Source: Phycisphaerales bacterium (GTDB lineage: Bacteria; Planctomycetota; Phycisphaerae; Phycisphaerales; UBA1924). From it: 58,239 bases of DNA. The notes below the pieces were generated by a model, which worked only from the letters and a program-made list of their open reading frames with translations, was not told the DNA's origin and searched no databases. Where the stretch lies: assembly GCA_047620485.1 (NCBI GenBank), contig JBLHKT010000027.1, positions 1-58,239 on the forward strand, given 5' to 3'. This document shows positions 618 through 37,435 of this stretch, piece by piece. Both the position numbers and the translations under genes were made by a program. Each line of letters starts with the position of its first letter. Position 1 is the first letter of the stretch.

Positions 618-889
618 CCCGCATCGGCCGAGGCCGGTTCCTCGCAACTCACACAGAAGGCTGAGCAGTTCCTTGCTCAGCCTTTTCTGTCGCGCGGCCT
701 CAGCCGATCGCTCGCCGTGCTTCCAGGCGTTCATCCGGCTTCGGGTTATCCACCCCGAGCCCAACGGTCGTGTTAACCAGAACCCGGATTCTGAGAGTTC
801 GGCCGAGAGCGCCGGGGGGAGAACCCCTCGTTCCGGCGGGGTTCGCCTCGGGGTGGACTGGGGCCGTCCAATTCTGAGAGTGCCGATCG

Positions 890-955
890 GCCCCCACGCG
901 GCCCCCACGCGGCCCCCACGCGGCCCCCACGCGGCCCCCACGCGGCCCCCACGGG
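890..955. repeat. Tandem 11-nt repeat gcccccacgcg, five perfect copies plus one degenerate copy; the paralogous copy at 37.3 kb has a single unit
   Basis: Read directly: gcccccacgcg x5 then gcccccacggg. It creates the spurious 'GPHAAPTRPPR' ORFs on both strands. Confidence 0.9.
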
Positions 956-974
956 CCAAGTTCGGGGTGGTCTG

Positions 975-1014
975 GGTAAACAAACAGGCCCGCGTCCTGA
1001 TGGACACGGGCCTG
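975..1014 (-). terminator. Rho-independent terminator on the minus strand (stem caggcccgtgtcc/ggacgcgggcctg, loop atca, followed by TTTGTTTAC) downstream of the 1059-1475 gene
   Basis: 13-bp GC-rich imperfect inverted repeat followed by a T-rich run on the minus strand. The same hairpin follows tRNA-Asn at 37382-37421. Confidence 0.6.
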
Positions 1015-1058
1015 GGAACTCCCCGAGCCGAACGGGTTCAAATGGTTGGCTCTCTATT

Positions 1059-1475
1059 TCAGTCTTCAACTTCAGCTGTGCGGATATCTACAAACCCTGA
1101 CGGCAGGGTGGCGTACCACGTCGGCTCGGTAGAGATCGAGGTGACCGGGTAGATGCGGCCGCTCTGGTTGATCACGTCCATAATCGAGAGCTCGACGCAG
1201 ACCCGGTTGGGCTCGTCCCATTCGGCTGATTTGGTTTCGATGAAGGAGAGCCCGGGGCCGACGTGAGAGGCGGCCATGTTGAAACCATCGCCGTAGATGT
1301 CGATCACGGACTCTGTGGGCTCAGGGTTTGCGGAGATTCTGATGACGCCTGAGCCCTCAACCTTCGTGAGAAACTCTGGGAGAGTCTGGCGGAACAGAGG
1401 GGTGTTGAGGGAGAGACCGTGCTCTTCGAGCAGGGACTGGATTTCTTCGAGGCTCATGTGCTGAGGGTCTGTCAT
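1059..1475 (-). CDS. Hypothetical protein (138 aa), last gene of the long minus-strand array
   Basis: ORF with plausible ATG (MTDPQHMSLEEIQ...) and a terminator hairpin about 45 nt downstream. No recognisable domain. Confidence 0.5.
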   Translation of the reverse strand: MTDPQHMSLEEIQSLLEEHGLSLNTPLFRQTLPEFLTKVEGSGVIRISANPEPTESVIDIYGDGFNMAASHVGPGLSFIETKSAEWDEPNRVCVELSIMDVINQSGRIYPVTSISTEPTWYATLPSGFVDIRTAEVED

Positions 1476-1520
1476 GAGTGCTCCTTGTCGTGTGGCGTGC
1501 TGGGGGCGGCTTGAACGGGT

Positions 1521-2834
1521 TTAGAAATACAGCCCGATGTTGACGTTGAACCTCGTGCCCCACTTGTCATCGGCACCTTCGGCGAGCCCGTCGGTCCAGT
1601 CGCCGCCGAGCCAGGGGTGGTTCTTACCCACAGCCAGATCGATGTAGATGTAGAACGGGTTCGCGGAGATCATGCACCCCAGCACGTTCTGGACGGTGTC
1701 GTTGTACCCGGACTCGGCTTTGAGCATGAGGCTGGAGTCGTTGTAGAAGGTGAGCGACTGGATGCCGTGGTTGTCGATGGGGAGGGTGTAAGCGAGCCCG
1801 GCGGTGAGGATGGATGCCTCGGAGGCGACGTGGTACCAGGCGTCGTAGGCACCCATGGTTACGAAACTGCCGTCGGGGCTCGAGTCGAGTGATGGGTCGT
1901 TCTCCAGGTCGTACTTGTAGTGGATCGCCTGGAGCATGAGGTTCCACCGGCCGTAGGTGCCGTTGAGGTGGGCGGCGACGGCCCACTGGTTGCCGTCTCG
2001 GCCGGTGTTTTTGTTGGGCACCAGCCCGTACTGGAGTGAGAGCCCGATCTCGGTGGTGTTGGATTCGGAGTGGTCGAAGGTGTAGGCGAGCTTGGCGTTG
2101 CCTTGGTGTTTTTCCTCGTTGCCGTCGTTCTCTTCCAGGACCAGGTCGTAGGAGTAGCGTGCGCTGTCGTTGGAATCGCCGGTGTAGTCCCCCCCGTCGT
2201 TGGCGAAGTAGGCGAGCTGGAATTCCCATGGCCCGGAGTCGTGGATGAGCTTGACGCCGAGGTCGTAGTCGTCCTCGAGCCCGACGTAGTAGGGGAGCTG
2301 GAAGAACCAGGAGTGCGAGGCGTAGGTCTGGATGCCGAAGGGGACCTGGGTGAGCCCGGCGCGGACCTGGCTCTCGTCGTCGATCTTCCACCCCAACCAG
2401 GCGTACTTGAGCATGTGGTAGTCGTGGTTGTCGGTGAACCGTTCGTTGTAGTACCGGTATTCGAGCGAGCCGATGATGTGCTCGGTGTCTAGATCGAGAT
2501 TGACGCGCACAGTGTCGAGTGCGAGCTCGCCGGAGTCTTGGTAGTGCGAGCCGTAGTCTCGTGTGGAATAGTTGTATCGGAGGGCGCCGCCGACTCTGAG
2601 CGGGCCGAGGAAGAAGCCCTTCCAGCCCTCGTCGATTTCGAGGTCTGCTGGTTCGATCTCGGCATCGGCGTCCGGGGTCTCGGAGAAGAGAGGATCGATC
2701 GTGGTGGGCGATTCGGATGTCTGCGCCTGAGCGGTCAGAGCAGCGAGCAGCATTGTGAGCCAGAACGTGGGCACCTGACAAGCAGGGCGGTTCACTGGTA
2801 GCGAAGGCGCGCGGTGTGAGGATATGGTCGTCAT
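1521..2834 (-). CDS. Putative outer-membrane beta-barrel protein/porin (signal peptide MLLAALTAQAQ, alternating amphipathic strands, C-terminal ...IGLYF)
   Basis: N-terminal signal peptide, aromatic-rich beta-strand pattern and terminal Phe typical of OMPs. Its start overlaps the stop of the upstream gene by 4 nt. Confidence 0.6.
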   Translation of the reverse strand: MTTISSHRAPSLPVNRPACQVPTFWLTMLLAALTAQAQTSESPTTIDPLFSETPDADAEIEPADLEIDEGWKGFFLGPLRVGGALRYNYSTRDYGSHYQDSGELALDTVRVNLDLDTEHIIGSLEYRYYNERFTDNHDYHMLKYAWLGWKIDDESQVRAGLTQVPFGIQTYASHSWFFQLPYYVGLEDDYDLGVKLIHDSGPWEFQLAYFANDGGDYTGDSNDSARYSYDLVLEENDGNEEKHQGNAKLAYTFDHSESNTTEIGLSLQYGLVPNKNTGRDGNQWAVAAHLNGTYGRWNLMLQAIHYKYDLENDPSLDSSPDGSFVTMGAYDAWYHVASEASILTAGLAYTLPIDNHGIQSLTFYNDSSLMLKAESGYNDTVQNVLGCMISANPFYIYIDLAVGKNHPWLGGDWTDGLAEGADDKWGTRFNVNIGLYF

Positions 2835-5800
2835 TCGCCGATCTCCTTGGTGATTTTGATGAGATTACGATCCGCTCGGCGCTCATACTCGATGGTGTCA
2901 ACAAGGCGTCGGACGATCTCGATGCCGTCACCCCCGATGGAGCGTTCCTCGATGGGGAGGTCGATCCGTGGCGCGGCCTGTTCGAGCGGGTTGAACTCAA
3001 GCCCGTCGTCGGAGATGGTGACGACGACCCGTTGTGTGTTGATCTCGACCTTGATGTCGATCTGGTGGATCTTGTCGTCCTTATACCCGTGGGAGATAAC
3101 GTTGCTGAGCAGTTCGTCGAATACGATGCAGAAGCTTCGGCGGACTTTTTCGGTCAGGCTGTGTGGGGTGACGAACTTCTCGAAGAACTCGTTGACCCGG
3201 GTGATCTCGTCTTTGCGGTTCAGGATCGAGATCTCGAACCGTCGCTGCACCGAACTCTCGCTTGCGCCTCGGTACAGCAGGGTGAGAATGGTGATGTCGT
3301 CGGCCTGCTCGGCGCCGTTCTCGAAAGTACGGATCGCGTCGATGGTCTTGTCGAGAGCCTGCTTGTCCGAATCTGGTGCCTCGGTTTCGAGGAGCTTGGC
3401 GAGGCGATCCTCGGTGAACAGCTCCTTGGCCGGGTTCATCGCCTCGGTGACACCGTCGGTGTAGGTCACCAGCACGTCGCCGGGTTTGAGGGCGGTGCTT
3501 GACGACCCGTACTCCAGATCGGGCGAGGCACCGATGATGGGGCCGTGCCGATCCCGGAGGCGTTCGACCGAGCCATCGACGCGGCGGATCATGGGCGGGT
3601 TGTGCCCGGCGTTGGTGTAGGTCAGCTGCCCGGTGCGGGTGTTGAGCACCGCGAGGAACTCGGTGACAAACATGCAGGACTCGTTGCGCTCCGAGAGCCT
3701 GTTGTTGACCAGCGAGAGCACGCGGGAGGTCGAGACATCGTCCATGGCTCTCGAGCGGATGAGGGTCTGGGTGACGGCCATGAAGAGCGCAGAGGGGACG
3801 CCCTTGCCCGAGACATCGCCGATGGAGATACACAGGTGGTCGTCGTTGATGAAGAAGAAGTCGTAGAAGTCGCCGCCGACCTCGCGGGCGGGGATGATCG
3901 CAGCGCTGATGGAGAACTCGTCGTGGTCGGGGAAGGCGGGGAAGATGAGCGGGACCATGCTCATCTGGATGTCGCGTCCGACGTTGAGCTCCTGCTCCAT
4001 CCGCATGGAGTGCTGCTTGATGATGGCGTAGGCGTCGGTGAGCCGGTGGTTGGTGCCTTCGAGCTTCATGCGGCTCCACAGGAACAGCCCGGTCAGCCCG
4101 GTGATGAGCACGACGGCGAGCCCGGTTCCGACGACGGCCTGACGGGTGAAGGCGGCCCGTAGCTCGTAGGCCTCGGCAACATCGATCTCGGTGGTAATGC
4201 CCAGCCCGATGCGGTCGTCCCAGACCCAGGTGCCGATGACGGGCACGCCGCGGTAGTCGTTGTACCCGTCAAGATTGGACGCCGAGTTGCCGCCGGTGGC
4301 CTGGTCGGCCATGTGCGTGAGAGAGAGTTGCTCGGGCGGGAGGGAAGTGGTGTGCCCGAGGGTGAGGTTGCCGCCGGGGTCTCGCAGGGCGACGTTGAGG
4401 ATGCTGCGTTGGTCGGGTTCGATGATGCCGATCTGCTCGAGCTGATCGTCGAACCGGCTCTCGGAGACCATCTGCCCGAGCCGGTTGAAGGCGTAGGACT
4501 CGCCGGAATCGCCCATGCGGCCGCGCTGGAGGATCGCGGTGAAGGGGCCTTCGGTGTCGGCAGCAAGGATTAGCCCGCCGATCAAGGTGCCTGTCTCGTT
4601 ATACACGGGCGCGGCGACCAGCAGCAGTTGATGCAAGGTGTGCGTGACTGTGGCTTGGGGGTCCAGCGTGGGTACGCGGACCGAGGTCGGGCGGTTGTCG
4701 GCGATGACCTGGTTGAGCATATCGAGGCAGAGCGCCCGGTCAGTCTCGGTGAGCGTGGAGAGGTCTTCACCGGCAAGCAGGAGCTGCCCGTCGGGTGCGA
4801 TTACGACAAACGTGTCAAATGCGAGCGCGTCGGAGGTCTCGGTGAGCGCCCGGCGGAGGGCTGTTGACTGGGCTTCAAGCTCCGCGGCGTCGGCATCTCC
4901 CGACAGGGACTCAACCGCTAAGGGCACCGCGGGGCGCTGCGTCAGGCTCTGGGCATCGTACTCTCGGGCCCGGATCCAGTCGAAGGCGGCCTGGCTTGTG
5001 GTGCGCAGGACCGTGTTCTGCGCGTTGCCGACATCGCTGGTGGCTCGCTTGAACGTCGCGGACCAGCTCATCCGCCCGGCGAGGATGACCACGACGATCG
5101 CGGAAGCCCCGGTGACCACGATCGGCCATGAGTGGAGGAGATTGGCCTTGTGGAAGTCACGCTCGGATGTTTTACGACGGACGGCCAGAACGAGGGCGAG
5201 GACGACCACGCCTATGACAGATCCCACGATGGTGAGCGTCGGGTCACGAGTGAGCAGGGAGTCGCCAGGCGGCTCGAGGGCGATCCATCGGCGGTAGATG
5301 TCTTGGCGCTCCGACGCGGGGATGGAGTCCAGAGCTCGCCGGAGCATGGCGTGGAGCTCGGGCCAATCGTTGCGGGACGCGATGCACAGGTTCCACTCCA
5401 TGCCGGAGGTCCCGGCGACGCGGAGATTTGTCATCCCGTTCTTCTCGATATAGAAGCTCGCGGCGCCGATGTTGGCGATCACCGCGTCGGCGACGCCGAA
5501 CGAGACCAGCTCGAGCCCCTCCTCAATGTTGGGCACTTCGACCAGTTGCAGGTTGGGGTGGTTGTCGCGGACGTACTCAGCCGAGGCGTAGCCCTTCATG
5601 ACGACGACGTTGAGCCCGGCGAGGTCGGCGATGCTCAGCGTGCCCTCGGTCTCTCGCCGAACGATGATGACGATCGGGAGGTCGATGTACGGCTTGGTGA
5701 ACAGCATGAACTCGCGGCGCTCGGGCGTGTTCTGGGCCTCGAGCCAGACGTCGGCCTCGCGGGCCTTGGTCGCGGTCACGACGCCCTGCCAAGAGTCGTA

Positions 5801-6154
5801 TCGGGCGATCTCGAACTCGATGCCGAGCTTCTGTTCGATGATGCCAGCGTACTCGGCCATCACGCCGCGGTAGATCCCCTCGTCGTCGAAGTACTCCATC
5901 GGGGGGAAGTTGGGTGCTGGCGCGACCCGAATACCCGGGTGTGCGTCGAGCCAGGCCCGCTCTTCGGTTGTGATCACGAATTCCTCTTGAGCCAGCGCGT
6001 GAGGGCCGGCCGCGAGAAACAACAGGACTGAGACGGTCCAAAGCACCACCGAAACCACGGCGAGGCGGGGACGATCGCGAGTCTCAAGGGGTGTTGTATC
6101 TTGCTGAGACATGCGGCGGCTGCCTTTCATTCTCGACCCGATTTGAGGTCGCAC
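2831..6154 (-). CDS. 1107-aa multidomain membrane sensor: periplasmic solute-binding domain (SBP_bac_3-like), several TM helices, extracytoplasmic sensor region, PP2C/SpoIIE-type Ser phosphatase domain and C-terminal RsbW-like GHKL Ser-kinase (HATPase_c_2) domain
   Basis: PP2C motifs (REVGGDFYDFF..., DVSGKGVPSALFM..., TYTDGVTEA) and a C-terminal anti-sigma-factor-like ATPase region (ELLSNVISHG...GGDGIEIVRRL). N-terminal PBPb-like region follows a signal/TM segment. Confidence 0.75.
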   Translation of the reverse strand: MRPQIGSRMKGSRRMSQQDTTPLETRDRPRLAVVSVVLWTVSVLLFLAAGPHALAQEEFVITTEERAWLDAHPGIRVAPAPNFPPMEYFDDEGIYRGVMAEYAGIIEQKLGIEFEIARYDSWQGVVTATKAREADVWLEAQNTPERREFMLFTKPYIDLPIVIIVRRETEGTLSIADLAGLNVVVMKGYASAEYVRDNHPNLQLVEVPNIEEGLELVSFGVADAVIANIGAASFYIEKNGMTNLRVAGTSGMEWNLCIASRNDWPELHAMLRRALDSIPASERQDIYRRWIALEPPGDSLLTRDPTLTIVGSVIGVVVLALVLAVRRKTSERDFHKANLLHSWPIVVTGASAIVVVILAGRMSWSATFKRATSDVGNAQNTVLRTTSQAAFDWIRAREYDAQSLTQRPAVPLAVESLSGDADAAELEAQSTALRRALTETSDALAFDTFVVIAPDGQLLLAGEDLSTLTETDRALCLDMLNQVIADNRPTSVRVPTLDPQATVTHTLHQLLLVAAPVYNETGTLIGGLILAADTEGPFTAILQRGRMGDSGESYAFNRLGQMVSESRFDDQLEQIGIIEPDQRSILNVALRDPGGNLTLGHTTSLPPEQLSLTHMADQATGGNSASNLDGYNDYRGVPVIGTWVWDDRIGLGITTEIDVAEAYELRAAFTRQAVVGTGLAVVLITGLTGLFLWSRMKLEGTNHRLTDAYAIIKQHSMRMEQELNVGRDIQMSMVPLIFPAFPDHDEFSISAAIIPAREVGGDFYDFFFINDDHLCISIGDVSGKGVPSALFMAVTQTLIRSRAMDDVSTSRVLSLVNNRLSERNESCMFVTEFLAVLNTRTGQLTYTNAGHNPPMIRRVDGSVERLRDRHGPIIGASPDLEYGSSSTALKPGDVLVTYTDGVTEAMNPAKELFTEDRLAKLLETEAPDSDKQALDKTIDAIRTFENGAEQADDITILTLLYRGASESSVQRRFEISILNRKDEITRVNEFFEKFVTPHSLTEKVRRSFCIVFDELLSNVISHGYKDDKIHQIDIKVEINTQRVVVTISDDGLEFNPLEQAAPRIDLPIEERSIGGDGIEIVRRLVDTIEYERRADRNLIKITKEIGE

Positions 6155-6178
6155 TGGAAACCCTCGGCGGGCGAAGAT

Positions 6179-7096
6179 TCACCCACTCACACAATGGTTT
6201 GCGATCTCGGCGACCTGTGCGATGAGGGCGTGATTAATTCCCGCGATGAGCAGCCCGGAGTGGTGCTGCGCGTCGATGGGACGGCCTGTCCCGTCAACGA
6301 CCTCGCCCCCGGCGTTGCGGATCACCTGCACCGCAGCGACGAAGTCGAACGGGTCGGCCGGGCGACGCTCCCACAGGTTGACGTAGATGAAGTTGCCCTT
6401 CGCTGCGTCTGCCAGCGCCAAGGACGGTGAGCCACTCTCCATGCGAACCAGGCGGACCTGGTCGAGAGTCCAGGCGTCGATCAGGCTCGCGACGAGAGGC
6501 CCCGACCCACGCGAAGAGTGCACGAGCACGAGCGGCTGGTCGGTGGGGGTCTGATCGAGAGGCAGGTCAACACCGATGTCCTGCTCGCCGAACATGTCGA
6601 GGTGCAGCAGGCGGGATTTCCGGGTTCCCATGGTGTAGGAGATCTCGCCGGTCGCGGGGTTCGCGATGATCCCGAGGAACGGGCTGCCGTTACGGAAGAA
6701 CGCGAGGACCACAGCGGTGGTGCTCATCCGGTTGATCAGGGCCCAGGTGCCGTCGAGCGGATCGACCGCGACCGCGATGCCCTGCTCGGGGAGAAACCCT
6801 CCCATCTCCTCGCCGACCAGTTCCGCGTCGGGGCAGAACTCGGTGAGCCGCTCACGGATCATCTGCTCGATCTGTTCTTCTTGCGCGGTCACCGGCGTCG
6901 CGTCTTGTTTGAATGAGGTGGAATCCTGCAGCGGCGTCATGCGGAGCCTGCGGATGACGCGGCAGGCCTCGAGGGTAGTGTTCAAGGCGAAGTCGAGCCA
7001 TTCGTTGAGTGCGTGGTCCGGTGCAGGTCTCGGCTTGTCTCGATCTCCGCTCCTGAAGGCGCCAATAGCTGATTTCTCGGTCGGGGTGAGTTCCAT
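6179..7096 (-). CDS. Inositol monophosphatase-family phosphatase (IMPase/CysQ/SuhB-like, about 305 aa)
   Basis: AVDPLDGTWALI metal-binding motif plus family-typical EEMGG and WERRPADPFD segments. Start placed at MELTPTE. Confidence 0.7.
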   Translation of the reverse strand: MELTPTEKSAIGAFRSGDRDKPRPAPDHALNEWLDFALNTTLEACRVIRRLRMTPLQDSTSFKQDATPVTAQEEQIEQMIRERLTEFCPDAELVGEEMGGFLPEQGIAVAVDPLDGTWALINRMSTTAVVLAFFRNGSPFLGIIANPATGEISYTMGTRKSRLLHLDMFGEQDIGVDLPLDQTPTDQPLVLVHSSRGSGPLVASLIDAWTLDQVRLVRMESGSPSLALADAAKGNFIYVNLWERRPADPFDFVAAVQVIRNAGGEVVDGTGRPIDAQHHSGLLIAGINHALIAQVAEIANHCVSG

Positions 7097-7116
7097 GTGC
7101 GGTTCGTCCTCTCGGT

Positions 7117-9708: not shown

Positions 9709-9739
9709 GGGTACTCCCGTGGAATCCGCGGCACACGCC

Positions 9740-10072: not shown

Positions 10073-10127
10073 CCGATTCTCCTGCGGCGTGTGGTGTGGG
10101 CGGGCTCTCGGTGAGTCGTGCTGAATT

Positions 10128-11716: not shown

Positions 11717-11745
11717 CGTTCGTCCTTCGGTGTTCGTGCCGCGGA

Positions 11746-13032: not shown

Positions 13033-13081
13033 GGTGGTTGGTCCTTTGCTGTGCTCGATCGGGAGTGGGGGGGTGGGGGGA

Positions 13082-24065: not shown

Positions 24066-24220
24066 GGTTCCCCCCCGGGAAATGGTGTTCAGAACTGGAG
24101 TGCAAATGCGACTGTTACCGTTGTTACCGTGTTACCCGCTTCCCCCCCTTCTCTCTAGAACGATTGAGGAATAGAGCGATACACGTCAAGTCGGTAACAC
24201 GGTTACATCGGTAACGCTCC

Positions 24221-26368: not shown

Positions 26369-26420
26369 GTTTATGCCCCCCCAGGCACCCCGACGAACGC
26401 CGGGTGTTGTTCGAGTTGCT

Positions 26421-28351: not shown

Positions 28352-28863
28352 GCCGAGCCCCCTCGCTTGGGTTTGGTGAGCCCGAAAAAGAGATAGCCGT
28401 TCCAATGGCTCCCGGTGATCGCGTGGGCGACCGCCGAGAGCGAGCGGTACGCCGTGCCCTCGTGTTCGAAGCCATTGGAAAGGACCGTCACCCGGTGCTC
28501 GATCCCCTTGAACTCCCGTGTCAGAACCGAGCCGGCGATCGGGAGGCGCTCGTCGGGGCGGCGGGCCACGGTGCCCGTCACGGTCCGCACAGCCGCCCCC
28601 AGAGCGACCCCCGAACTCTCCCAGTCGGACGGCGGGCGGACACGCAGGTCGGCGTCACGGGCCAGCTCCGCGGCCCTGACGCGGGCACGCTCGGTGAGGT
28701 CGCCCTCGACCTGTGCCTGCAGCCGCCACGCGATCCTGCGGATCATCCAGCGGCGGTTGGACGAGCGGGTGCCCTCGCCGTACACCTCGGCGTACCGGTC
28801 ACGCAGCTGGCCGACGGTCAGCTCATCGAGCGAGTCGATCTGATCTCGGGTGTGGTCCGTCAT
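28348..28863 (-). CDS. DUF2924-family protein (171 aa), the usual upstream partner of large serine recombinases
   Basis: LDELTVGQLRDRYAEVYGEGTRSSNRRWMIRRIAWRLQ... matches my recollection of DUF2924. Its stop abuts the recombinase start. Confidence 0.55.
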   Translation of the reverse strand: MTDHTRDQIDSLDELTVGQLRDRYAEVYGEGTRSSNRRWMIRRIAWRLQAQVEGDLTERARVRAAELARDADLRVRPPSDWESSGVALGAAVRTVTGTVARRPDERLPIAGSVLTREFKGIEHRVTVLSNGFEHEGTAYRSLSAVAHAITGSHWNGYLFFGLTKPKRGGSA

Positions 28864-29510
28864 CGCGTCTCCCTTCCGGCCCGCATCGCGCAGGCCTCTC
28901 GCGTCTCGCCCGGTAAACCGGACGGGACACTGAGGTCTTGCGAGTGGGGGAGTTCAAGCGATGTCGGGAGAGATTCTGAGCGTGACGGGAGCGCATCGAT
29001 AACGCGGGCCAAGCCGATGCTGAGCGCCTCGACCAATGGCCCGGGCGGTGTGCGCGATGAAAGATGTGCGGTCAGCCCACCGGGACGAAGCCCGGCCAAC
29101 TCGAAGTTTTCCCCCACCATGTCTGCCCCCCCCGAGGCTTGCAGAGCGTGATCTCGCGTCCCGTCCGGCCCCCCAGCCGAGTACTCCCGCGACGCCGGAG
29201 CACGCCCCGAATCGAGTACAATTATAGGCCACTGGTTAACGCGAAGCACTGCTTGGGCCGATCGAAATATTGTATTCGATAGCGACCTGTCGAGCGGTGC
29301 GCGGCCAGGCCCGTGGCATTGATGCCCTGCCCGTGCGGCCGAGCAGGGCCTGCCCGTCGCGGAGTGCTTTGAGTCGGTCGTTCGGGTCTGGATGGGCTTG
29401 GGTGTTGGCATCGCACCCATTGTGTGCACGTGTCAACCGGTGGATTGTCAGGGGCAATGACGAAGCGACTCTGTGAAGAGTAAACGGGCTGAGCGGAGAC
29501 TTGGTGAAGA

Positions 29511-30589: not shown

Positions 30590-32014
30590 TTAACACCCCG
30601 TCAGAAACGCAGCAATGAACGACCCGATGTCGCTGTTGTCGAGGATGCCGTCGGCATTGAGATCCGCGGCGATGTCACCGGTGAGGAAGAGACCCACAAA
30701 CACACCGATGTCGCCGAAGTCGAGGATGCCGTCGTCGTTGAGGTCGGCGTGACACGGCCCGGGGCTGGCGACCGCGGCGGCGATATCGAGCATCCCCACG
30801 CCGATCACGTCCTCGAACCCCGGGTTCGCACCCGAGATATCCCGCGCGGTCTTGCGGAGGATCCAGCGGAAGTCGTCCCACCGCCGGATCGTTCCCTTCT
30901 GGATGAGCAACGCCGCGGTGCCGGCAACCAGCGGGGCCGCGAGGCTCGTGCCGTCCGCTTCTCCAAATGAGCTGGGGGGCAGCGCGGGGCCGCACAGCAT
31001 CGCGGGGATCGCCCCGGTCAGGGAGGTGCCCGGGACCGAGATGAAATAATCCACGCCATAGTTGCTGAACCCGGCCAGTGAGCCGCTCTCATCGACCGCG
31101 ACGACCCCTGCGACCTTGCGCATCGCGGCCGGGTACTCGGGGATGTCGCTCGAGTTGTTGCCGGCCGCGGCAACGAGGATGATGCCCTGAGCGGCGGCGT
31201 CGTCCACCGCGCGATCGAGGATGCGCAGATCCGCCCTTGTGCTGAGGCTCAGGTTGATGACATCGGCGTTGTTGTCGATCGCGTAATAGATCGCCTTGGC
31301 GACCCGAAATGCGGTGGTGTGCCCCTCGTCGTTGACGATCCGGATGGGCAGGATCGTCGCGTCTGGCGCGACCATCAACGCGAGTGAGGCGACCGCGGTG
31401 CCGTGCCCGACCATCTCATCGATCAACCCGTCCCCGTCGTCGTCGATCCCGTTGCACACATCGGCGAACGCGGCCGGGTCATTGATGGCGGGGTCGTTCA
31501 GGAATGAGATCGCCAACGGAGAGATGGAGCCCTCGAGATTGGGATGCGTGGGATCAACCCCGCTGTCGATCACCGCGATGGTCACCCCCGCTCCGGTCAC
31601 CGTGGCCTGGGCCGCTTCCACGCCCATGGCCTGGCGCACCGGCTGCTGCTGGAACTGCTCGGGCGGGGTCATCAGAAAGATGCTCTGCGTCCCTGAGCCC
31701 GGGTCGCCCGAGAGGTAATTCAGCTCGCTGTGATCGATATCCGCATCGGTGGCAAAGAGAATCTCGAACGCGTCCGGCGTCATCTGCAGCTCAAGTGACA
31801 CCAGGTGGATCCCACGCGACGCGATCGAGTCGCGCACCACAAACCCGTAGCGTGCGGCGACCGCCTGGATCGAGGCCCCCGGGACGAGCTCGAGGATGCC
31901 CTCGCCCGAGAGGGGCTGATCGCCTTGTGGGCCAGCCGCCGCGACCGCGGTAAGCGTGATCAGGGACGACGCGAGAATCGATAGCCGTGTTAGTACAAGC
32001 ATTCTGGTTCTCAT
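30590..32014 (-). CDS. Secreted subtilisin-like serine protease (peptidase S8, D-H-S triad) with C-terminal GC-type dockerin-like tandem repeats ending ...FLTGC
   Basis: VIDSGVD, HGTAVAS and GTSLAAPLVAG catalytic motifs, signal peptide MRTRMLVLTRLSILASSLITLTAVAAA, and a C-terminal DLNDDGILDFGDIGVFVGLFL / DLNADGILDNSDIGSFIAAFLTGC module. Its start overlaps the CHAT gene stop (TAATG). Confidence 0.85.
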   Translation of the reverse strand: MRTRMLVLTRLSILASSLITLTAVAAAGPQGDQPLSGEGILELVPGASIQAVAARYGFVVRDSIASRGIHLVSLELQMTPDAFEILFATDADIDHSELNYLSGDPGSGTQSIFLMTPPEQFQQQPVRQAMGVEAAQATVTGAGVTIAVIDSGVDPTHPNLEGSISPLAISFLNDPAINDPAAFADVCNGIDDDGDGLIDEMVGHGTAVASLALMVAPDATILPIRIVNDEGHTTAFRVAKAIYYAIDNNADVINLSLSTRADLRILDRAVDDAAAQGIILVAAAGNNSSDIPEYPAAMRKVAGVVAVDESGSLAGFSNYGVDYFISVPGTSLTGAIPAMLCGPALPPSSFGEADGTSLAAPLVAGTAALLIQKGTIRRWDDFRWILRKTARDISGANPGFEDVIGVGMLDIAAAVASPGPCHADLNDDGILDFGDIGVFVGLFLTGDIAADLNADGILDNSDIGSFIAAFLTGC

Positions 32015-34845
32015 TATGCAACTCCGATCGCGATAAAGCCAGACCAAAGTCCGGGGTGAGTGCCATTCTTGATTGCTTGACGCTGGGCCCGGTGAAGGCC
32101 CGAGAATAATCTGGCGGCGGGGGTGCCCGTTTTTGGGGCCTCGGCGTACATCCGGCTCATCAGCTCCCGGGCGGTCGCGTCGTGTGAGGCCCAGAGGCAC
32201 GAGACCAGTCCGCTGGCCCCGGCGGCGAGGAAAGCACGAACAAACCCGTACACCTCCTCGCCTGAATCGACACGGGCACGCCCGGTCTCGCAACCCGAGA
32301 GCGTGACCGCGGCCCCGTCCAGGTCGAGTGAGAAGATCTCACGGGCTGTCAGCCACCGGTCGTGCAGCTTGATCGCCGCGGCGAGTGGGTTGCCCGGCGG
32401 GAAGATCCCGTGAGCCGCCAGATGGATGAAGTCGGCCCCCGCGAGCTGGCCGAGCACACCATCGGCCGTCGCGTCCGCACCCGTCAGCAGGCAGGGGTCG
32501 GGCAGCACGTGCGCCACGGCGCGGGCCTCTGCGTCGATATGCGGGGCGAATCGGTCGGCCACACCAACGACGAGCGATCGACCCGTCGTGCGGTTCTCGG
32601 GTCGTGTGATCGCGCTGAGCAGGCTGGCGCTGGGGAGGTTGGTCACACTCATCCGCTCGATGAGGAACGCGTCGCCGTCGTGCAGTGCGCCGAACGGGAC
32701 GGTGTGCAGGTCCGCCGTCGGCACGCACGTGACACGGGCAATATCACTCAGCAGCGGGAGAACCGGGTGGAGCACGGCGTCGTGCAGCGCGAAGGCCGCA
32801 GAGATCGCGGCCGAGGTACGCTTCGCGGCCCGCGCCGAACTCCCCGAGCCTCGCACGATCGCGCGCCGGAACTGAAACGAGAGGTTTCCGGCCAAGGACT
32901 CGAGCTCGTCGAGCCCGAGCCGAAGATCCACGAAGTGGATCGCCCCCCGCCGAACGACGAAGCATCCCAGCGAATCCCCGCACCGAGCGTACGTGAGCAG
33001 GGCATGATCCGGATCCAGCGAATCGGCGAGCTCGACGCCCGGCTGCGGGGTGGCCAGGACCCCGCGCCCCGCGCGCGACGCGGAAAGCCGAGATTCCAAC
33101 CCCGTCACGCGGCTCTCAACCAGGTGGAGCTCCGAGAGCCAGTCGGTGACTTTGGGGGCTGTGTCAACTTCCGCGGCGGGGTCGATCCGGCTGTACAGAA
33201 AATTGAGCGCGGCACGCTGCTCGGCCAGCTGCATGAGCAGGCGGGACTCGTCCTCGGACCGCGCCGCCCGCGCGATTTGATCGGCCAACTCAACGTCCCC
33301 GCTGATCAGGTCGAGCAGCGCCCGTGAGCGCCCACGCTCGGTGACATCAAACGCCTCGGTTTGCGCGTCCGGCCCACCGGCCTGGAGGATCACGGCGGTA
33401 GCCTCTGAGAACACCTCGTGCCGCTCATCGATGAAGGCCGCTCGGAGCCGATCACCCTGCAGTGCCCCACGGATACGGTCGAGATGGTGCATCGCATGTC
33501 GGTACTGCTCAACCGCCTCAGCGACCGAGCCCCGGGCGCAAAGAACCCGCGCCATCCGGTGGTGCAGGTCCGCGAGCACCGAGGGCAGCGCGAGCGTGCC
33601 CGCGTCTTCGATCGCACGGGCGATGAGGTCGTGAGCCGCCTCAAGGTTTTCGTTCGCCAGCTCGATATCGCCGCGCAGCATGATCCGGAACAGCCGCAGC
33701 GTCGGGGGCTCTACCGTGCCTGCCGGTGGGTCTGCCGCAAAGGCCAGGGCCTGAGCCGTGTCGCCGGCGAGCAGGGCGAGACGACCTCTCAGGAGGCGCG
33801 CGGTGGTCTGGCCCGCGGCGTTGCCGAGGGTGTCATAGAGCTGTTGCGCCCCTGTGAGCGCGTCGCCGGCTCGGGCGGGGTCCCGCTTGAGCAGCACCGA
33901 GGCCAGCCCGGTGAGCGCTCTGGCGCGTTCGGCGGTGAGCCCAACCTCTTGGAGCGCCGAGTCTGACCGGGCGTAGAGCTCCGCCGCATCGTCAAGCAGG
34001 CCGATCGCGGCGAGCACGTCGGCGAGCTCGGCCTCAAGACGTGCCAGGTCACCCGGTGCACGGTCCTGCTCGAAGAACCGCCGTGCCAGCTCGAACTGCT
34101 CGATGGCCTCGGAGAACCGCCCCTGGCGCCCGAGCAGGTCTGCCAGGTTTCCACGCACGATCGCCGCAACGCGCGGCATCCCCGCCTCGTCAAGCAGCTC
34201 GCAAGATTCTCGAAAAGCAGACTCGGCCTGTCTGAACCGACCCAGCTCCAGCAACGACTCGGCCCGGTTGGACTGGATCTGTGCCGTAGTCGTCGGGTCG
34301 CCCTTCGCCAGCCGCAGCGCCTGATCGAACCGATCGATCGACTCGGACCATTGCCCCAGCATCCGGTGCAGGATCGCGTGGTTCGTCACCGCACGCACCG
34401 CGAGCTCGGGCTGTTCAGACTCACGGAAGACCCTCTCGGCGTGCTCGCAGCACCCGATCGCGTCGGCGAAACGCCCGAGGCGTGCATAGGACTGGATCTT
34501 GGTCAGCGAGACGTGCGCACGCTCGATCTCATCCTCACGCGCCGCGGCGATCTGGTCCGCTTCGTCGAGGGCGTGGATCGCGTCCGTAAAGCGGTTGGCG
34601 TAGTTGAGCGCGTGCGCCAGGGCGGTCCGTGCCCGCGCGCTGGCGATCGAGGCCTCGAGGCGGTCCGCGATCAGGCAAAGGATCTCGGCCTGCTCGAGCG
34701 CTCGCGTCAGATCACTCATCACCAGGTCACGCACCTCATCGATCAGCTCGAGCAGCACGCTTTCTGGGAACGACAGGCGCGCGACCTCACGGGCGCGGTC
34801 CGCGTCCGGCATCGAGGCAATCCGTTCGAGTTGCGATCTGTACAC
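32014..34845 (-). CDS. TPR-repeat protein with C-terminal CHAT (caspase-like) protease domain (943 aa)
   Basis: Multiple TPR-like helical repeats, then a CHAT domain with the His/Cys dyad (FIHLAAHG ... VTLSGCETG). Confidence 0.8.
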   Translation of the reverse strand: MYRSQLERIASMPDADRAREVARLSFPESVLLELIDEVRDLVMSDLTRALEQAEILCLIADRLEASIASARARTALAHALNYANRFTDAIHALDEADQIAAAREDEIERAHVSLTKIQSYARLGRFADAIGCCEHAERVFRESEQPELAVRAVTNHAILHRMLGQWSESIDRFDQALRLAKGDPTTTAQIQSNRAESLLELGRFRQAESAFRESCELLDEAGMPRVAAIVRGNLADLLGRQGRFSEAIEQFELARRFFEQDRAPGDLARLEAELADVLAAIGLLDDAAELYARSDSALQEVGLTAERARALTGLASVLLKRDPARAGDALTGAQQLYDTLGNAAGQTTARLLRGRLALLAGDTAQALAFAADPPAGTVEPPTLRLFRIMLRGDIELANENLEAAHDLIARAIEDAGTLALPSVLADLHHRMARVLCARGSVAEAVEQYRHAMHHLDRIRGALQGDRLRAAFIDERHEVFSEATAVILQAGGPDAQTEAFDVTERGRSRALLDLISGDVELADQIARAARSEDESRLLMQLAEQRAALNFLYSRIDPAAEVDTAPKVTDWLSELHLVESRVTGLESRLSASRAGRGVLATPQPGVELADSLDPDHALLTYARCGDSLGCFVVRRGAIHFVDLRLGLDELESLAGNLSFQFRRAIVRGSGSSARAAKRTSAAISAAFALHDAVLHPVLPLLSDIARVTCVPTADLHTVPFGALHDGDAFLIERMSVTNLPSASLLSAITRPENRTTGRSLVVGVADRFAPHIDAEARAVAHVLPDPCLLTGADATADGVLGQLAGADFIHLAAHGIFPPGNPLAAAIKLHDRWLTAREIFSLDLDGAAVTLSGCETGRARVDSGEEVYGFVRAFLAAGASGLVSCLWASHDATARELMSRMYAEAPKTGTPAARLFSGLHRAQRQAIKNGTHPGLWSGFIAIGVA

Positions 34846-34859
34846 GAACCCTCCCGTGC

Positions 34860-35483
34860 TCAGGGGACCAGGACCGGGCCCGCTTCGATCAGCAGGTCGC
34901 CACGCCGCAGCTCAAAGAGGAAGGAGCCAGCGGTGAGCTCGGCGGCAAACGCCCCCATCTCGGATTGGATTTCTGCGATAGGGAGGTCGCTGGCACGGTC
35001 CACCACGGTGATCTGCCAAGCCCCCTCAACGTCGGCGTCGATCTGCCCGGTCACCCGCCACTGCCCATCAGAGACCGGGGCAAGCTCCAGATCGATGTCC
35101 GCCTCGTCGGTGCTGAAGGCGAGCTGGGCCGTCGCCCCAGCGCCTCGGATACCGGCGACCGCGGGCGTGAGCCGGGTGTCCAGATCCAGCGAAGCGATCA
35201 CCCGGACCAGCCCCTCGGCCAACCGCTCGATCGCACCCGGGCGACTCTCGGCCAGGGCCCGCTTGGCCCGCTTGATCGCCTCCGTTGCGGGCACCGTGCG
35301 CGGCTCGGCGAGGAGGAATCGCACCGCGAACTCGATCTTCTCGAACGCCAACCCCAGAGCGGGGTCGGCGTTGATCCGGGCCCTGAGCGCCGCGGCTTGG
35401 GGTCCGTCGAGCTCACCCGTCGCCAGGGACGTGAGCAGCTCAAGTTCAGACGGTTCCGGGTTGTTGGGGGTGTCTGTGTTCAT
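34860..35483 (-). CDS. Putative soluble anti-sigma factor (about 207 aa)
   Basis: N-terminus LELLTSLATGELDGPQAAALRARINADPAL resembles the anti-sigma N-terminal domain. It sits between the ECF sigma and the CHAT gene. No TM helix seen. Confidence 0.45.
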   Translation of the reverse strand: MNTDTPNNPEPSELELLTSLATGELDGPQAAALRARINADPALGLAFEKIEFAVRFLLAEPRTVPATEAIKRAKRALAESRPGAIERLAEGLVRVIASLDLDTRLTPAVAGIRGAGATAQLAFSTDEADIDLELAPVSDGQWRVTGQIDADVEGAWQITVVDRASDLPIAEIQSEMGAFAAELTAGSFLFELRRGDLLIEAGPVLVP

Positions 35484-35545
35484 GGGTTGTTCCACGGTTT
35501 ATGAGAGAGCCGGCTCGGCTGAGATACATCAAGGACACAGAATTT

Positions 35546-36121
35546 TTACTCTGACCCACGATCCTCGTCGGCTTGTGCTTGCTCAAACAGCATTCTGAGG
35601 CGATCAAGGCACCTGGCCCGGCTCGGCCCGATGGCCCCCCGCGGCATGTCGAGCTGATCGGCGATCTGGTCGTACGCCGGGCGTTCGTCCGCGAACAGAG
35701 CAATGAGTAGTGACCGGCACCGAGGATCCAGGAGGTTGAGCGACTCGCGAAGGACCTGGCGTTGCTCGGTCAGCTCGAACTCGGCGTGGGTGCCGATCTC
35801 CGCCTCCGCCTCGGCTTCTCTGGAGACCGCGGACGGGGGGCGCTTTCGCAGCGCGTGCCAGGTTTCCCGCTGGGTTGTGGTGATCAGCCACGCCGCGACG
35901 GTCTGCCCGTCACGCAACGCGTTCAGGTGCCGCACCGCGAGCGTCCAGACGTTCTGAAACACGTCCTCGGCTTCTTCCTTGGGCAGCCCGTGCCGAGCCG
36001 GGATGGAGTACACCAGCCTCGAGTAGCGGTCAACGAGGTCCGACCAGGCCCGCGCGTTGCCCTGCAGGCATCGCGAGACGAGTTGGGCATCCGTGATTTC
36101 GTTCGCGGGTTCGCTTGGCAT
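35546..36121 (-). CDS. ECF-type RNA polymerase sigma-70 factor (191 aa)
   Basis: Region 2 (RLVYSIPARHG...EDVFQNVWTL) and region 4 (AYDQIADQLDMPRGAIGPSRARCLDRLR) are present. Start at MPSEPAN. Confidence 0.8.
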   Translation of the reverse strand: MPSEPANEITDAQLVSRCLQGNARAWSDLVDRYSRLVYSIPARHGLPKEEAEDVFQNVWTLAVRHLNALRDGQTVAAWLITTTQRETWHALRKRPPSAVSREAEAEAEIGTHAEFELTEQRQVLRESLNLLDPRCRSLLIALFADERPAYDQIADQLDMPRGAIGPSRARCLDRLRMLFEQAQADEDRGSE

Positions 36122-36379
36122 CGTTAACCGTGGTGTGTGTCCAGTGTCCCTGAGAGGATAGGGATCTCGCGGGTGCCGCTGTTGAATTCGCGCCGCGGAA
36201 GAATCTTTGAGAAGCGTGTATCTGCCCCGCCGACGCGGCCTCCTCTGTGGTGTCGTACCCGAGCCCGGGGGGCCTGGCCCGGTGCGACTCGAAACCCAGA
36301 CCTTGGTGTGACCTGGCACCAACGTCTCAATCTGATGACCCAGGCCGATGCGGGGAAGAACGGAATTGGAGCACAAGTC

Positions 36380-36838
36380 ATGCTGAAGAACATTGCTATT
36401 TTGATGACGGCGACCGCGGCACTAGGCCTCCTGGCCGCGGGCCCCAACGCAAGCATGCCGGAACCCTCCGCCCTGGGCGGCGGCACCGGCGGCGGCAGCG
36501 GCGGGGCATCCACCCGCGTCAAGCTCGAGGTCCGGATGGAATCCGGCAACGATCAGTCCCAGGCTCGGGCCCGGTATGAGATGCGGCAGCGCAACGGTCT
36601 GGTGATTCAAAGGTTTGATGTGTCCGCCGAAGACTTCGAGCCGGGGACCGTGCTCGACGTGAGCGTCAAGGGCCGTTTCGTCGGATCCATCACGATCAAT
36701 AATCTCGGCATCGGCAGCCTCGAGCTCCGCACGGGCTCACGGATCGATGATCCGGGTGACGGCTCACCCATCGGGGACTTCCCGAATCTTCAGGCGGGCG
36801 ATTCCGTCTCGGTCGGCCCGCTGTCGGGCACGTTCTGA
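36380..36838 (+). CDS. Small secreted hypothetical protein (152 aa, signal peptide MLKNIAILMTATAALGLLAAG)
   Basis: Divergent from the ECF sigma gene; Gly-rich linker then a beta-rich domain. No known domain. Confidence 0.45.
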   Translation: MLKNIAILMTATAALGLLAAGPNASMPEPSALGGGTGGGSGGASTRVKLEVRMESGNDQSQARARYEMRQRNGLVIQRFDVSAEDFEPGTVLDVSVKGRFVGSITINNLGIGSLELRTGSRIDDPGDGSPIGDFPNLQAGDSVSVGPLSGTF

Positions 36839-37186
36839 ATTCACTGATCTCAACTCAGCGACCGCACGATTCAAACCGCTCAAGCGTGAGAGACCTCGCT
36901 TGAGCACTTTCATCCTGCCTCACCGGCAGCTCACCGTCCCCCCAGGCAGCCCGTGTCCGCCCCGCGGTGCGGGTTGCTCTTTCTGCTCACGGAATCTCTC
37001 TAAACAGGGCCACGTGGAATCACGCTGGAGGGGCGAGATTAAACTCAACTCGGACGCCCTGCCCGACTCATGGGCGGGGTGTGTTCACGCCACGAGTTGC
37101 TCGGCAAGGCTCGCTGCAGCGCAGCCCACTCCCTGCGCTCAGTCACCGCTTGGGCTGACCGCTCCCCGTACTTCTAGACGTACATG

Positions 37187-37435
37187 TGGCTGCGGGTTAT
37201 CCACCCCGAGCCCAACGGTGGTGTTAACCAGAACTCGGATTCTGAGAGTCTCCCAGAGAGCGCCGTGGGAAGAGCCCTTGATCCGGCGGGGTTCGCCTCG
37301 GGGTGGACTCTGGCGTTCAGATTCTGAGAGCGCCGAATCGTGCCCCACGCGGCCTAGACGGGCCGGGTTCGTAGCGGTCTCAGCAAACAAACAGGCCCGC
37401 GTCCTGATGGACACGGGCCTGGGAACTCCCCGAGC
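37187..37435. repeat. Copy B of the ~250-290 nt repeat module (see 737-1028); overlaps the last 10 nt of tRNA-Asn and contains its terminator
   Basis: See copy A. A single 11-mer unit here versus five in copy A. Confidence 0.8.
37382..37421 (-). terminator. Rho-independent terminator of tRNA-Asn on the minus strand (stem caggcccgtgtcc/ggacgcgggcctg followed by TTTGTTTGCT)
   Basis: Hairpin plus T-run immediately 3' of the tRNA on its strand. Confidence 0.65.

Follow-up and report, generated by a model that had tools for sequence, protein, structure and literature searches.

Two copies of a repeat in a Phycisphaerales genome are best explained as the junctions of DNA that was inserted at the 3ʹ end of a tRNA-Asn gene, a reading to which we assign a probability of about 0.55. 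The 36.4 kb between the copies is now probably a mosaic, immobile island, and it holds conflict-system-like genes, nitrogen-assimilation genes and the remnant of an internal integrative element. The DNA analysed, here termed the window, is 58,239 nt long and constitutes one whole contig of a Phycisphaerales MAG.

A direct repeat that ends in tRNA-Asn

Positions 703-1028 and 37154-37435 are direct repeats of each other, with 245 of 277 aligned bases (88%) matching in local alignment. The repeat far exceeds chance: the alignment of copy A with copy B scores 304, and the maximum among 200 shuffles was 34. An initial annotation of this DNA had recognized the direct repeat and both of its copies, but it began them at 737 and 37187, and the alignment places the start of homology about 34 nt further left. 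The last 51 nt of the repeat (978-1028 and 37385-37435) are identical, and the earlier claim that they include the final 10 nt of tRNA-Asn and its terminator hairpin was confirmed by sequence comparison, ARAGORN and Rfam. With tRNA-Asn placed at 37426-37498, the repeat takes in the last 10 nt of that gene (37426-37435, the same as 1019-1028). The tRNA adjoins copy B only; copy A joins the same 10 nt to a sequence termed motif J. The features of this region are the following.

703-1049, no strand: module copy A (attR-like), consisting of body, terminator, 10-nt tRNA-Asn 3ʹ fragment and J
37154-37435, no strand: module copy B (attL-like), consisting of body, terminator and the last 10 nt of the intact tRNA-Asn
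978-1028, minus strand: 51-nt block of copy A, with the tRNA 3ʹ 10 nt (1028 to 1019), a 4-nt spacer, a hairpin (1014 to 985) and a T-tract
37385-37435, minus strand: 51-nt block of copy B, the terminator of tRNA-Asn, with its hairpin at 37421 to 37392
37426-37498, minus strand: tRNA-Asn(GTT), found by ARAGORN and Rfam (69.5 bits), with no other tRNA in the window; presumed target of integration
888-957, no strand: 11-nt tandem repeat CGGCCCCCACG, 6.5 units, expanded in copy A only (about 1.5 units in the other copies)

Copy A is located between a dockerin-type gene (stop at 617), which has its own terminator around 650-680, and a 138-aa gene (stop at 1059). An extra 44-45 nt in copy A stems from the expansion of the CGGCCCCCACG tandem repeat. 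In total, the repeat extends about 315 nt past the tRNA and includes 45 nt (703-748) that are absent from the two related metagenome contigs described below, L047 and L053. Such a repeat beyond the tRNA is atypical for att sites, and a RecA-type event would fit it equally well.

In both copies, the hairpin was called as an intrinsic terminator of the minus strand, in which 13 pairs precede TTTGTTT; a G-U pair on this strand becomes a C-A mismatch on the plus strand. Each terminator may still end the minus-strand transcript upstream of it, that of the tRNA in copy B and that of the 138-aa gene in copy A. Among all copies, the terminator and core are 89-98% identical, compared with 80% for neighbouring coding DNA. 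The displaced tRNA fragment lies on the downstream side of tRNA-Asn, in the same orientation and inside the identical block. A fragment of 10 nt is short, and its weight comes from the flanking identity and from the recurrence of the same breakpoint in L047 and L053. Identity with the tRNA starts 3ʹ of the T-stem, not at the anticodon loop or T-stem of a canonical crossover. Sublocations of integration within tRNA genes were reportedly distinguished by Williams in 2002, and the breakpoint found here may correspond to the one that we take to be 3ʹ-end sublocation III.

A conserved junction motif in three genomes

The sequence that replaces the rest of the tRNA in copy A recurs outside this genome.

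1029-1049, no strand: junction motif J, CGAACGGGTTCAAATGGTTGG, 21 nt, matching at 19 of 21 positions in L047 and 17 of 21 in L053, at the same place

The tRNA fragment ends at the same base in all three genomes, and J follows it every time. J is unlike the tRNA sequence at the matching position of copy B, with 25-37% identity between copy B and the J-type copies, which is the chance level. In addition, J and the module body align to tRNA-Asn no better than shuffled sequence does and, by this comparison, are not tRNA-derived. The five bases cgaac that follow the fragment in copy A had been described as consistent with a decayed tRNA T-arm with a 6-nt deletion, an interpretation that falls with this result and with the conservation of J in its own right. 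We infer instead that J derives from attP and forms the arm on the element side. Site-specific integration classically leaves this kind of signature, in which a displaced 3ʹ piece of the target gene adjoins a conserved motif foreign to that gene.

Beyond J, nothing is shared among the three genomes. GC content just inside J is 0.55-0.59 in each of them (0.574, the lowest value, for copy A) versus 0.67-0.68 in the outside dockerin genes. The suggestion of att sites thus gained from the breakpoint and J, both reproduced in L047 and L053 and followed by unrelated DNA of lower GC, but the empty site proposed as its check was not seen in relatives: no relative was found with tRNA-Asn, module and dockerin gene in succession, and contigs with the DUF6263 neighbour stop inside the tRNA. 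L047, which alone among the contigs has a homologous dockerin gene, is J-type and so occupied as well. Its outside flank carries this homologue at 80% DNA and 79% protein identity; since the end of the dockerin gene occurs at least three times in the MAG in near-identical form, the homologue may be the ortholog of another paralog. The context of L053 is a third one, unrelated to those of copy A and L047. In L053, a body like that of copy B (80% identity overall, 91% next to the terminator) is joined to J, which is the arrangement that would be expected of attP or of a tandem junction. Both contigs are J-type, and a second copy of the tRNA type was not seen in the JGI metagenome scan. At the J edge, the 138-aa gene has no homologue above 51% identity in searches; the gene across the tRNA has relatives at 83% and 77%.

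Search for further copies

Only two copies of the module are present in the window. A third was not found in a further 16.8 kb of the same genome (75 kb covered in all) or after four other dockerin-type genes, and the JGI metagenome scan returned L047 and L053 as the only related contigs. Viral contigs (pattern scans) and plasmids (BLAST search) yielded no copy, and a scan of a genome-contig collection, with the rest of the source MAG outside its scope, gave chance matches only. These results weaken the suggestion, made alongside that of att sites, that the module is a mobile terminator cassette. Logan unitigs were presumably built with k = 31, so that the unitig L043 would be expected to stop about 30 nt into the shared block. 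It stops after 16 nt, which hints at another J-type variant in the sample.

Motifs within the module

The module contains two sets of short repeated motifs.

753-765, plus strand: 13-nt motif CCCCGAGSCSAAC, site a, a direct repeat of site c (copy B counterpart 37204-37216)
841-853, minus strand: 13-nt motif CCCCGAGSCSAAC, site b, inverted relative to sites a and c (copy B counterpart 37291-37303)
1021-1033, plus strand: 13-nt motif CCCCGAGSCSAAC, site c, spanning tRNA-derived bases of the 10-nt fragment and the start of J
788-797 and 871-880 (span 788-880), plus strand: two direct copies of ATTCTGAGAG (copy B 37239-37248 and 37321-37330)

Site c would be the crossover region, and copy B has the tRNA sequence CCCCGAGCAGGAC in its place. 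Site a is a direct repeat of site c (core plus start of J), and the two are about 270 nt apart, a spacing compatible with a decayed element of about that length, and from its sequence site a looks like an older scar of J and core in the same orientation. Site b is inverted and so would not be a scar; CTCGGGGTGGAC, which flanks it, is invariant in all four known copies. The homology of copies A and B passes 45 nt beyond site a. Within the window, ATTCTGAGAG is confined to the module; L047 and L053 conserve the pair, which may provide accessory or arm-type binding sites. The longest invariant run in the module is 12 columns (p = 0.03).

The enclosed interval

The interval carries almost all of its genes on the minus strand and includes two candidate integrases.

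1050-37153, minus strand: enclosed interval
20665-21579, minus strand: Xer-like tyrosine recombinase, Phage_integrase domain (E = 3e-33), matched in the catalytic domain only
26846-28405, minus strand: large serine recombinase, best NCBIfam match CcrB, with DUF2924 upstream at 28348-28863

The genes include a TCAD9-type cluster, SPFH, glnA, amtB, two-component genes and an RHS fragment, together with the integrative-element remnant, an S8 protease, a CHAT-TPR gene and a sigma factor; P4-type primase and ParB-methylase genes are also present. The gene content given in the initial annotation (glnA, amtB and recombinase genes, with the 1059-1475 gene ending at copy A) was correct throughout. The recombinase genes are located in the middle of the interval (20.6-29.4 kb) and neither adjoins an att copy: both integrase genes are 9-17 kb from the edges, the CcrB-like one about 9 kb from copy B and 26 kb from copy A. 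No att-like repeat marking the internal integrative element was found in the window, and no conjugation or mobilisation genes were seen in the interval. GC3 is 0.81 in interval genes versus 0.87 in the right flank (Mann-Whitney p = 0.01). In 1059-20315, the segment with glnA and amtB, the tetranucleotide signature resembles that of the host (r = 0.82 and 0.77 versus 0.83 between two core segments), and the values of shorter segments are within the range expected for their length. Given the host-like composition of 1-20 kb and the internal position of the recombinase genes, the interval has little resemblance to one simple, recent island.

Proposed origin of the junctions

Under the favoured reading, copy B would be attL, in which the tRNA is intact and its last 10 nt, the terminator and a downstream arm of about 230 nt were supplied by the incoming DNA. 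Copy A would be attR, in which J, on the element side, is fused to the displaced tRNA fragment together with the terminator and downstream region that were there originally. Crossover would have occurred at or next to GCTCGGGGAG, and the incoming DNA would already have carried a homologue of the whole tRNA-distal module. This may have come about by either of two routes. The module may be the attP arm region of an element family, one member of which had left the chromosomal copy at an earlier time, in a CIME-like accretion; alternatively, integration may have proceeded through a module that a circle had acquired in a close relative.

Alternative explanations

A duplication made without a site-specific recombinase is unlikely. 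It would consist of Campbell-type homologous integration of a circle with the region downstream of tRNA-Asn in a module of about 325 nt, or of a local segmental duplication or rearrangement followed by divergence, with J being older. That the homology of copies A and B runs past the part conserved in other genomes would suit such an event, as would the distal body, in which copies A and B match each other at 86% and the other-genome copies at 59-76%, with similarity that is patchy along the module. The lack of an integrase gene at either edge and the host-like composition of the first 20 kb point the same way. However, an earlier precise event would still be needed to bring J and the tRNA fragment together at the same base in three genomes, and no duplicated genes were found in the window, although a tandem or segmental duplication would be expected to copy genes too.

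Similarly improbable is that the module, J included, is a dispersed intergenic repeat, such as a portable cassette of terminator or binding sites, that spreads or persists because of a function of its own, flanks 36 kb by accident and of which copy B landed at tRNA-Asn by chance. Of the four known copies, only copy B adjoins a tRNA, L053 places the module in a third, unrelated context, and motifs specific to the module (three of CCCCGAGSCSAAC and two of ATTCTGAGAG) are kept across genomes. Moreover, near-identical dockerin gene ends are found at the start of three MAG contigs, and more module copies might follow any of these; the early stop of L043 hints at an additional J-type variant. Against this stand the two copies in 58 kb with none in the further sequence or after the other dockerin-type genes, and the yield of two related contigs from JGI and none from viral and plasmid searches. 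The module also lacks terminal inverted repeats and, in copy A, L047 and L053, a target-site duplication, its ends instead carrying a direct repeat (sites a and c). A dispersed repeat would furthermore leave unexplained why the exact last 10 nt of tRNA-Asn stand at a constant distance from the hairpin in every copy. A duplicated structured noncoding RNA or small protein is far less probable. Single-sequence folds are somewhat more stable than shuffles on both strands (z = -2.6 to -2.9), and an 11-13-bp inverted repeat made up of sites a and b gives a hairpin in three copies out of four, but L053 has lost it. No Rfam family matched even at E <= 10, and RNAalifold on the four copies gave unfavourable covariation terms on both strands (+1.3 and +2.4 kcal/mol), with stems that never vary; only the terminator stems are kept, and loops are variable. 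The body lies downstream of the minus-strand terminator, and the plus strand has no U-tract terminator. As for a protein, all reading frames are broken by 1-nt and 44-nt indels, and the only shared open reading frame has no ATG in copy A.

Comparison with known integration systems

Insertion at tRNA-Asn, the preferred reading, resembles three described systems in part. Islands integrated in tRNA genes, as defined by Islander (Hudson, Lau and Williams 2015, PMC4383910), span tens of kb, with recombinase genes inside; they are bounded on one side by the intact tRNA gene and on the other, downstream, by a 3ʹ fragment displaced from it that keeps its orientation, and the target gene regains its 3ʹ end from the incoming DNA; intact tRNA, displaced same-orientation fragment and internal integrase gene are all found here. 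Unlike in those islands, the fragment is restricted to an acceptor-stem strand and is shorter than one produced by crossover in the anticodon loop or T-stem, most of the identity block (41 nt of terminator) falls beyond the tRNA, with about 275 nt of additional homology, and the integrase genes are remote from the edges.

In the ssrA islands of Dehalococcoides, a conserved motif that cannot be aligned to the target precedes each direct repeat, and the integrase is of the CcrB family (McMurdie et al. 2011, PMC3146451). Direct repeats of the 3ʹ end of a small-RNA gene, a non-target motif upstream of the displaced repeat (here J), a CcrB-family large serine recombinase and a ParB-domain gene in the element are common to both. 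However, the integration module adjoins att in Dehalococcoides, whereas the CcrB-like gene is internal here; the repeat there is 20 bp, as opposed to 51 identical and about 275 diverged nt; and many tandem repeats are present there instead of two copies. The ssrA islands that have no integration module were interpreted as CIMEs or products of accretion (PMC3146451).

In the formation of CIMEs (cis-mobilizable elements) and the site-specific accretion of ICEs and IMEs (Pavlovic 2004, Bellanger 2011; reviewed in PMC5704250), a decayed element that retains att sites serves as a landing site, giving tandem structures with repeated att regions. Accretion onto a decayed element would produce the same arm of about 300 nt on the chromosome and element sides and a scar-like site a. 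The differences are the lack of visible conjugation or mobilisation genes, the inversion of site b and the extension of homology past site a.

Implications

Most likely, this is a genomic island of a familiar kind with unusually long junction repeats, and is otherwise an ordinary tRNA-linked island. A further reading, which we consider quite unlikely, is that the module is an att cassette complete in itself and devoid of genes, a CIME-like element in miniature that is conserved among uncultured Phycisphaerales and acts as a reusable landing pad at tRNA-Asn for the Xer-like or CcrB-like recombinase. Such a cassette would possess its own terminator, three 13-nt recombinase-type motifs (two direct and one inverted, hairpin-capable) and the two ATTCTGAGAG copies. 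It could travel with cargo, and glnA, amtB and conflict systems could be captured and exchanged between relatives by accretion.

If insertion at tRNA-Asn is the correct explanation, this gene would be an integration hotspot in an uncultured marine lineage of Phycisphaerales. The junction sequences (51-nt core, J and arm motifs) would then be defined, and islands and their variable cargo, represented here by a TCAD9-type system, a CHAT and S8 protease pair and the glnA-amtB block, could be mapped in related metagenomes. A long, motif-rich att arm on both the chromosome and the element side would make this a candidate for island accretion outside the Firmicutes and Dehalococcoides examples.

Two copies of a module that ends in tRNA-Asn

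The window is the complete 58,239-nt contig of an NCBI 'Phycisphaerales bacterium' MAG, with locus tags from ACI89L_002441. Its sole tRNA gene, on which ARAGORN and Rfam agree, is tRNA-Asn(GTT) at 37426-37498 on the minus strand. The sequence adjoining this gene (copy B, 37154-37435) recurs at 703-1028 (copy A); in local alignment, 245 of 277 aligned bases match, and the score of 304 against a shuffled maximum of 34 shows that the two-copy module described in the initial annotation is real. Searching the window with a profile of all known copies turned up no third one. Copy A owes its greater length to an 11-nt tandem unit, CGGCCCCCACG, repeated 6.5 times at 888-957, an expansion absent from the others; copy B and the related copies in two JGI metagenome contigs, L047 and L053, each have about 1.5 units.

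The final 51 nt of copies A and B do not differ. On the minus strand, this block starts with the last 10 nt of the tRNA, continues through a 4-nt spacer into a hairpin of 13 pairs, and finishes with TTTGTTT. The hairpin contains a G-U pair on the minus strand that is a C-A mismatch on the plus strand, and the T-tract is confined to the minus strand. The hairpin therefore serves as the terminator of the tRNA in copy B and of the gene for a 138-aa protein (1059-1475) in copy A, the latter role having been proposed from the start.

Sequence order in the module copies (for copies A and B, the proposed integrated forms)
Copy A: A-body (...GGTCTGGGT), 51 nt, CGAACGGGTTCAAATGG
Copy B: B-body (...GGTCTCAGC), 51 nt, AGGACTCGAACC
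L047: dockerin homologue, its own terminator, diverged body, same hairpin stems with another loop, AACTCCCCGAGC, CGAACGGGTTCAAACGATTGG
L053: body, hairpin, same core, then CGGACGGGTTCAAGCCGTTGG

A conserved junction sequence beyond the tRNA fragment

The hairpin stems were sought in JGI metagenome contigs; of the seven loci matched, two (L047 and L053) were true relatives. In L047, the module follows a gene homologous to the dockerin-type gene with which the window begins (80% DNA and 79% protein identity). The body in L053 is 80% identical to copy B, rising to 91% in the part closest to the terminator, and neither of its flanks is related to the window. Copy A reads CGAACGGGTTCAAATGGTTGG at 1029-1049, and together with L047 and L053 it shows that the breakpoint, 10 nt inside the 3ʹ end of the tRNA, is the same in three genomes, as is the 21-nt sequence beyond it, here termed J. 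J is conserved at 17 to 19 of 21 positions among these copies, whereas the tRNA sequence of copy B in the same columns is 25-37% identical to them, which is the chance level. Nor did tRNA-Asn align to J or to the module bodies better than to shuffles; a decayed-tRNA origin of body and J was thus rejected, and the earlier suggestion that copy A is followed by a decayed T-arm carrying a 6-nt deletion is not supported.

Past J, nothing is common to the three genomes: the window has the 138-aa gene, L047 a decayed kinase fragment, and L053 non-coding-looking DNA. GC content past J is 0.55-0.59 in each of them, lower than the 0.67-0.68 of the dockerin genes on the opposite side. In the distal body, copies A and B are 86% identical, compared with 59-76% between either and the copies elsewhere, and A-B homology runs 45 nt (703-748) past the part common to L047 and L053.

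Motifs within the module

A 13-nt motif, CCCCGAGSCSAAC, is found in the modules only. Its positions in copy A are as follows.

753-765, plus strand
841-853, minus strand
1021-1033, plus strand

In copy B only the first two are present, the third position being occupied by the tRNA's own CCCCGAGCAGGAC. These first two sites are inverted repeats of each other and fold into a hairpin in three of four copies. A further motif, ATTCTGAGAG, occurs twice per module and is absent from the rest of the window; both motif sets are retained in L047 and L053. We infer that they are candidate binding sites for a recombinase or an accessory protein. They do not fit the consensus sequences of integron attC or dif-like sites.

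That the module instead encodes a non-coding RNA or a small protein is very improbable. RNAalifold detected no covariation on either strand, and the tRNA was the sole Rfam match both at the gathering threshold and at E <= 10. Coding potential is excluded by indels of 1 and 44 nt together with copy A's loss of the start codon.

Gene content of the interval

Gene map from Pfam, NCBIfam, and PHROGs scans (nearly all genes on the minus strand; those on the plus strand marked)
1059-1475: 138-aa protein without known function
1521-2834: porin
2831-6154: SBP-dCache-SpoIIE-HATPase sensor
6179-7189: inositol monophosphatase
7117-9774: APH-TCAD9-NUDIX protein
9740-11357: STAS protein and SpoIIE protein
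11746-13104: SPFH
13082-14602: glnA
14871-16205: amtB
16202-20315: two response regulators and a histidine kinase
20375-20668 (plus): orphan RHS C-terminal fragment
20665-21579: Xer-like tyrosine recombinase
22734-24065: ParB_N-N6/N4 methyltransferase
24221-26443: PrimPol-D5_N / P4-type primase
26846-28405: CcrB-like large serine recombinase
28348-28863: DUF2924
30590-32293: S8 protease
32014-34845: CHAT-TPR protein
35546-36121: sigma-70-type factor
36380-36838 (plus): small secreted protein

The map bears out the presence of glnA and amtB between the copies and that of an integrative-element remnant, which spans 20665-29429 and comprises both recombinases, the methyltransferase, the primase, DUF2924, and two unknown genes. 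The recombinase genes thus lie mid-interval, away from its edges. No att-like repeat was found around them in the window, and mismatch, profile, and shared k-mer searches found no third copy of the core or J beside them of the kind that tandem islands would leave. The RHS/YD-repeat-like fragment at 20375-20668 (plus strand) has 97 codons with a GC3 of 0.92 and retains the C-terminal core only (..YYLTD..YTPYGE..); it abuts the stop codon of the tyrosine recombinase, marking a rearrangement breakpoint.

The 138-aa protein is part of a recurring gene set (1059-11357, minus strand). An unrelated ENA contig (L058, 5044-9864) has the same order of APH-TCAD9-NUDIX, inositol monophosphatase, SpoIIE phosphatase, and a 134-aa homologue, and in another contig (L059) a TCAD9 protein is likewise close by; the version in the window has an extra porin, a STAS protein, and a second SpoIIE protein. 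The set resembles a conflict or signalling system of the TCAD9 type. At 30590-36376, an S8 subtilase with a dockerin-like tail, a 943-aa TPR-CHAT (caspase-like) protein, a 211-aa unknown protein, and the sigma-70-type factor lie on one strand and may constitute another conflict-type module.

Base composition gives a mixed picture. GC3 is 0.81 in the interval genes and 0.87 in the right flank (p = 0.01), and GC reaches its minimum immediately inside J. Conversely, the tetranucleotide signature of 1059-20315 correlates with core segments of this genome (0.82 and 0.77) roughly as well as these do with one another (0.83). The best description of the interval is that of a variable, mosaic region that has been resident for a long time, not of a fresh island.

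To the right of the tRNA, 44428-49143 is an array of three to four diverged paralogous genes, seen as the direct repeats D5, D7, D11-D13, and D15. Its orthologues in L045 (a Logan unitig, 6978-10409), which have Flagellin_IN matches, are syntenic at about 80% DNA identity.

Copy number, assembly, and the search for an empty site

Many secreted proteins of the lineage share a C-terminal, dockerin-like double EF-hand domain that ends in ..FLAGC (3-617 and 30590-30767 in the window); the S8 protease has the same C-terminus as the window-start gene. Three contigs of the MAG, of 58.2, 42.1, and 28.7 kb, start inside gene ends that are at least 90% identical (ACI89L_002441, _002491, and _002548), so a multi-copy repeat in the genome breaks the assembly there. 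These near-identical ends also leave the orthology of the L047 gene uncertain, and the module might come after any of them, which would suit a dispersed cassette or repeat family. Such a family is nevertheless unlikely: no further copy occurs in 16.8 kb more of the same genome or downstream of four other dockerin-type genes, and nothing was found in viral contigs (three pattern scans, for the hairpin, the J junction, and the body) or plasmids (BLAST). The 19-mer TCCACCCCGAGCCCAACGG had 42 loci in a genome-contig collection that does not include this MAG, all of them chance matches with no further similarity.

A chimeric assembly at the 51-nt block was rejected, as L047 independently joins dockerin homologue, module, and J, and a Logan unitig from the same sample, L043, has the J junction. 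L043 ends at window position 1013, 16 nt into the block rather than the expected 30 or so, a break that may reflect a further J-type variant in the sample and in that respect favors a repeat family. Unitigs L044 and L045, from different samples, begin at the same base inside tRNA-Asn (window 37462). These breaks show both the tRNA and the core to be repetitive in the communities.

The relatives come from Logan SRR23287150 and JGI 3300010430, Ga0105053, and Ga0070729. No empty site was seen among them; contigs with a DUF6263 gene beside the tRNA end inside the tRNA. Searches likewise returned no close relative of the 138-aa protein and no module after dockerin homologues in other organisms. In a distant organism (L054, 1951-2061), a 45%-identical dockerin-type homologue is followed 200 nt on by a serine recombinase N-terminus (..GYLRRSTDRQEQ..), a hint that DNA downstream of this gene family may be an insertion site in other lineages too.

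The module copies as proposed attachment sites

tDNA islands are mapped by a signature in which the target gene is regenerated at one end and its displaced fragment lies at the other (PMC4383910). In Dehalococcoides ssrA islands, whose integrase is a CcrB-family serine recombinase, a conserved 15-bp motif that cannot be aligned to ssrA lies beside each direct repeat and locates the insertion point (PMC3146451). J resembles that motif in adjoining the displaced repeat without alignment to the target gene. A 10-nt match to the exact tRNA-Asn 3ʹ end at a fixed distance from the same terminator cannot be a coincidence; the J-type copies must thus derive from a tRNA-Asn 3ʹ flank by recombination at one precise position with one partner sequence. 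By the tDNA-island signature and the ssrA-island argument, copy B is read as attL, copy A as attR, and J as the element-side arm. This reading is the best supported of those weighed, with a probability of roughly 0.55. Excision would be expected to yield an empty attB (A-body, 51 nt, AGGACTCGAACC) and an attP circle (B-body, 51 nt, CGAACGGG), with the crossover placed at GCTCGGGGAG. L053 joins a B-like body to J, as would be expected for attP or for the middle junction of a tandem array.

Several features fit a simple island poorly: the tRNA fragment is only 10 nt, the repeat extends about 315 nt beyond the tRNA, A-B homology outruns the part shared with L047 and L053, and the two copies are closer to each other in the distal body than to those elsewhere. 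Duplication of the module independently of a recombinase is the remaining alternative and seems rather unlikely. Under the attachment-site reading, these features mean that the incoming DNA must already have had a counterpart closely homologous to the recipient's region distal to the tRNA. By one route, a family of elements would have the module as its attP arm region, and an earlier member would have left the copy now in the chromosome, in CIME-like accretion (PMC5704250). By another, a circle that had acquired the module in a close relative would have used it to integrate, possibly through homologous recombination. Either way, the finding would be a tRNA-linked genomic island of a known type, with a junction repeat that is unusually long and motif-rich.
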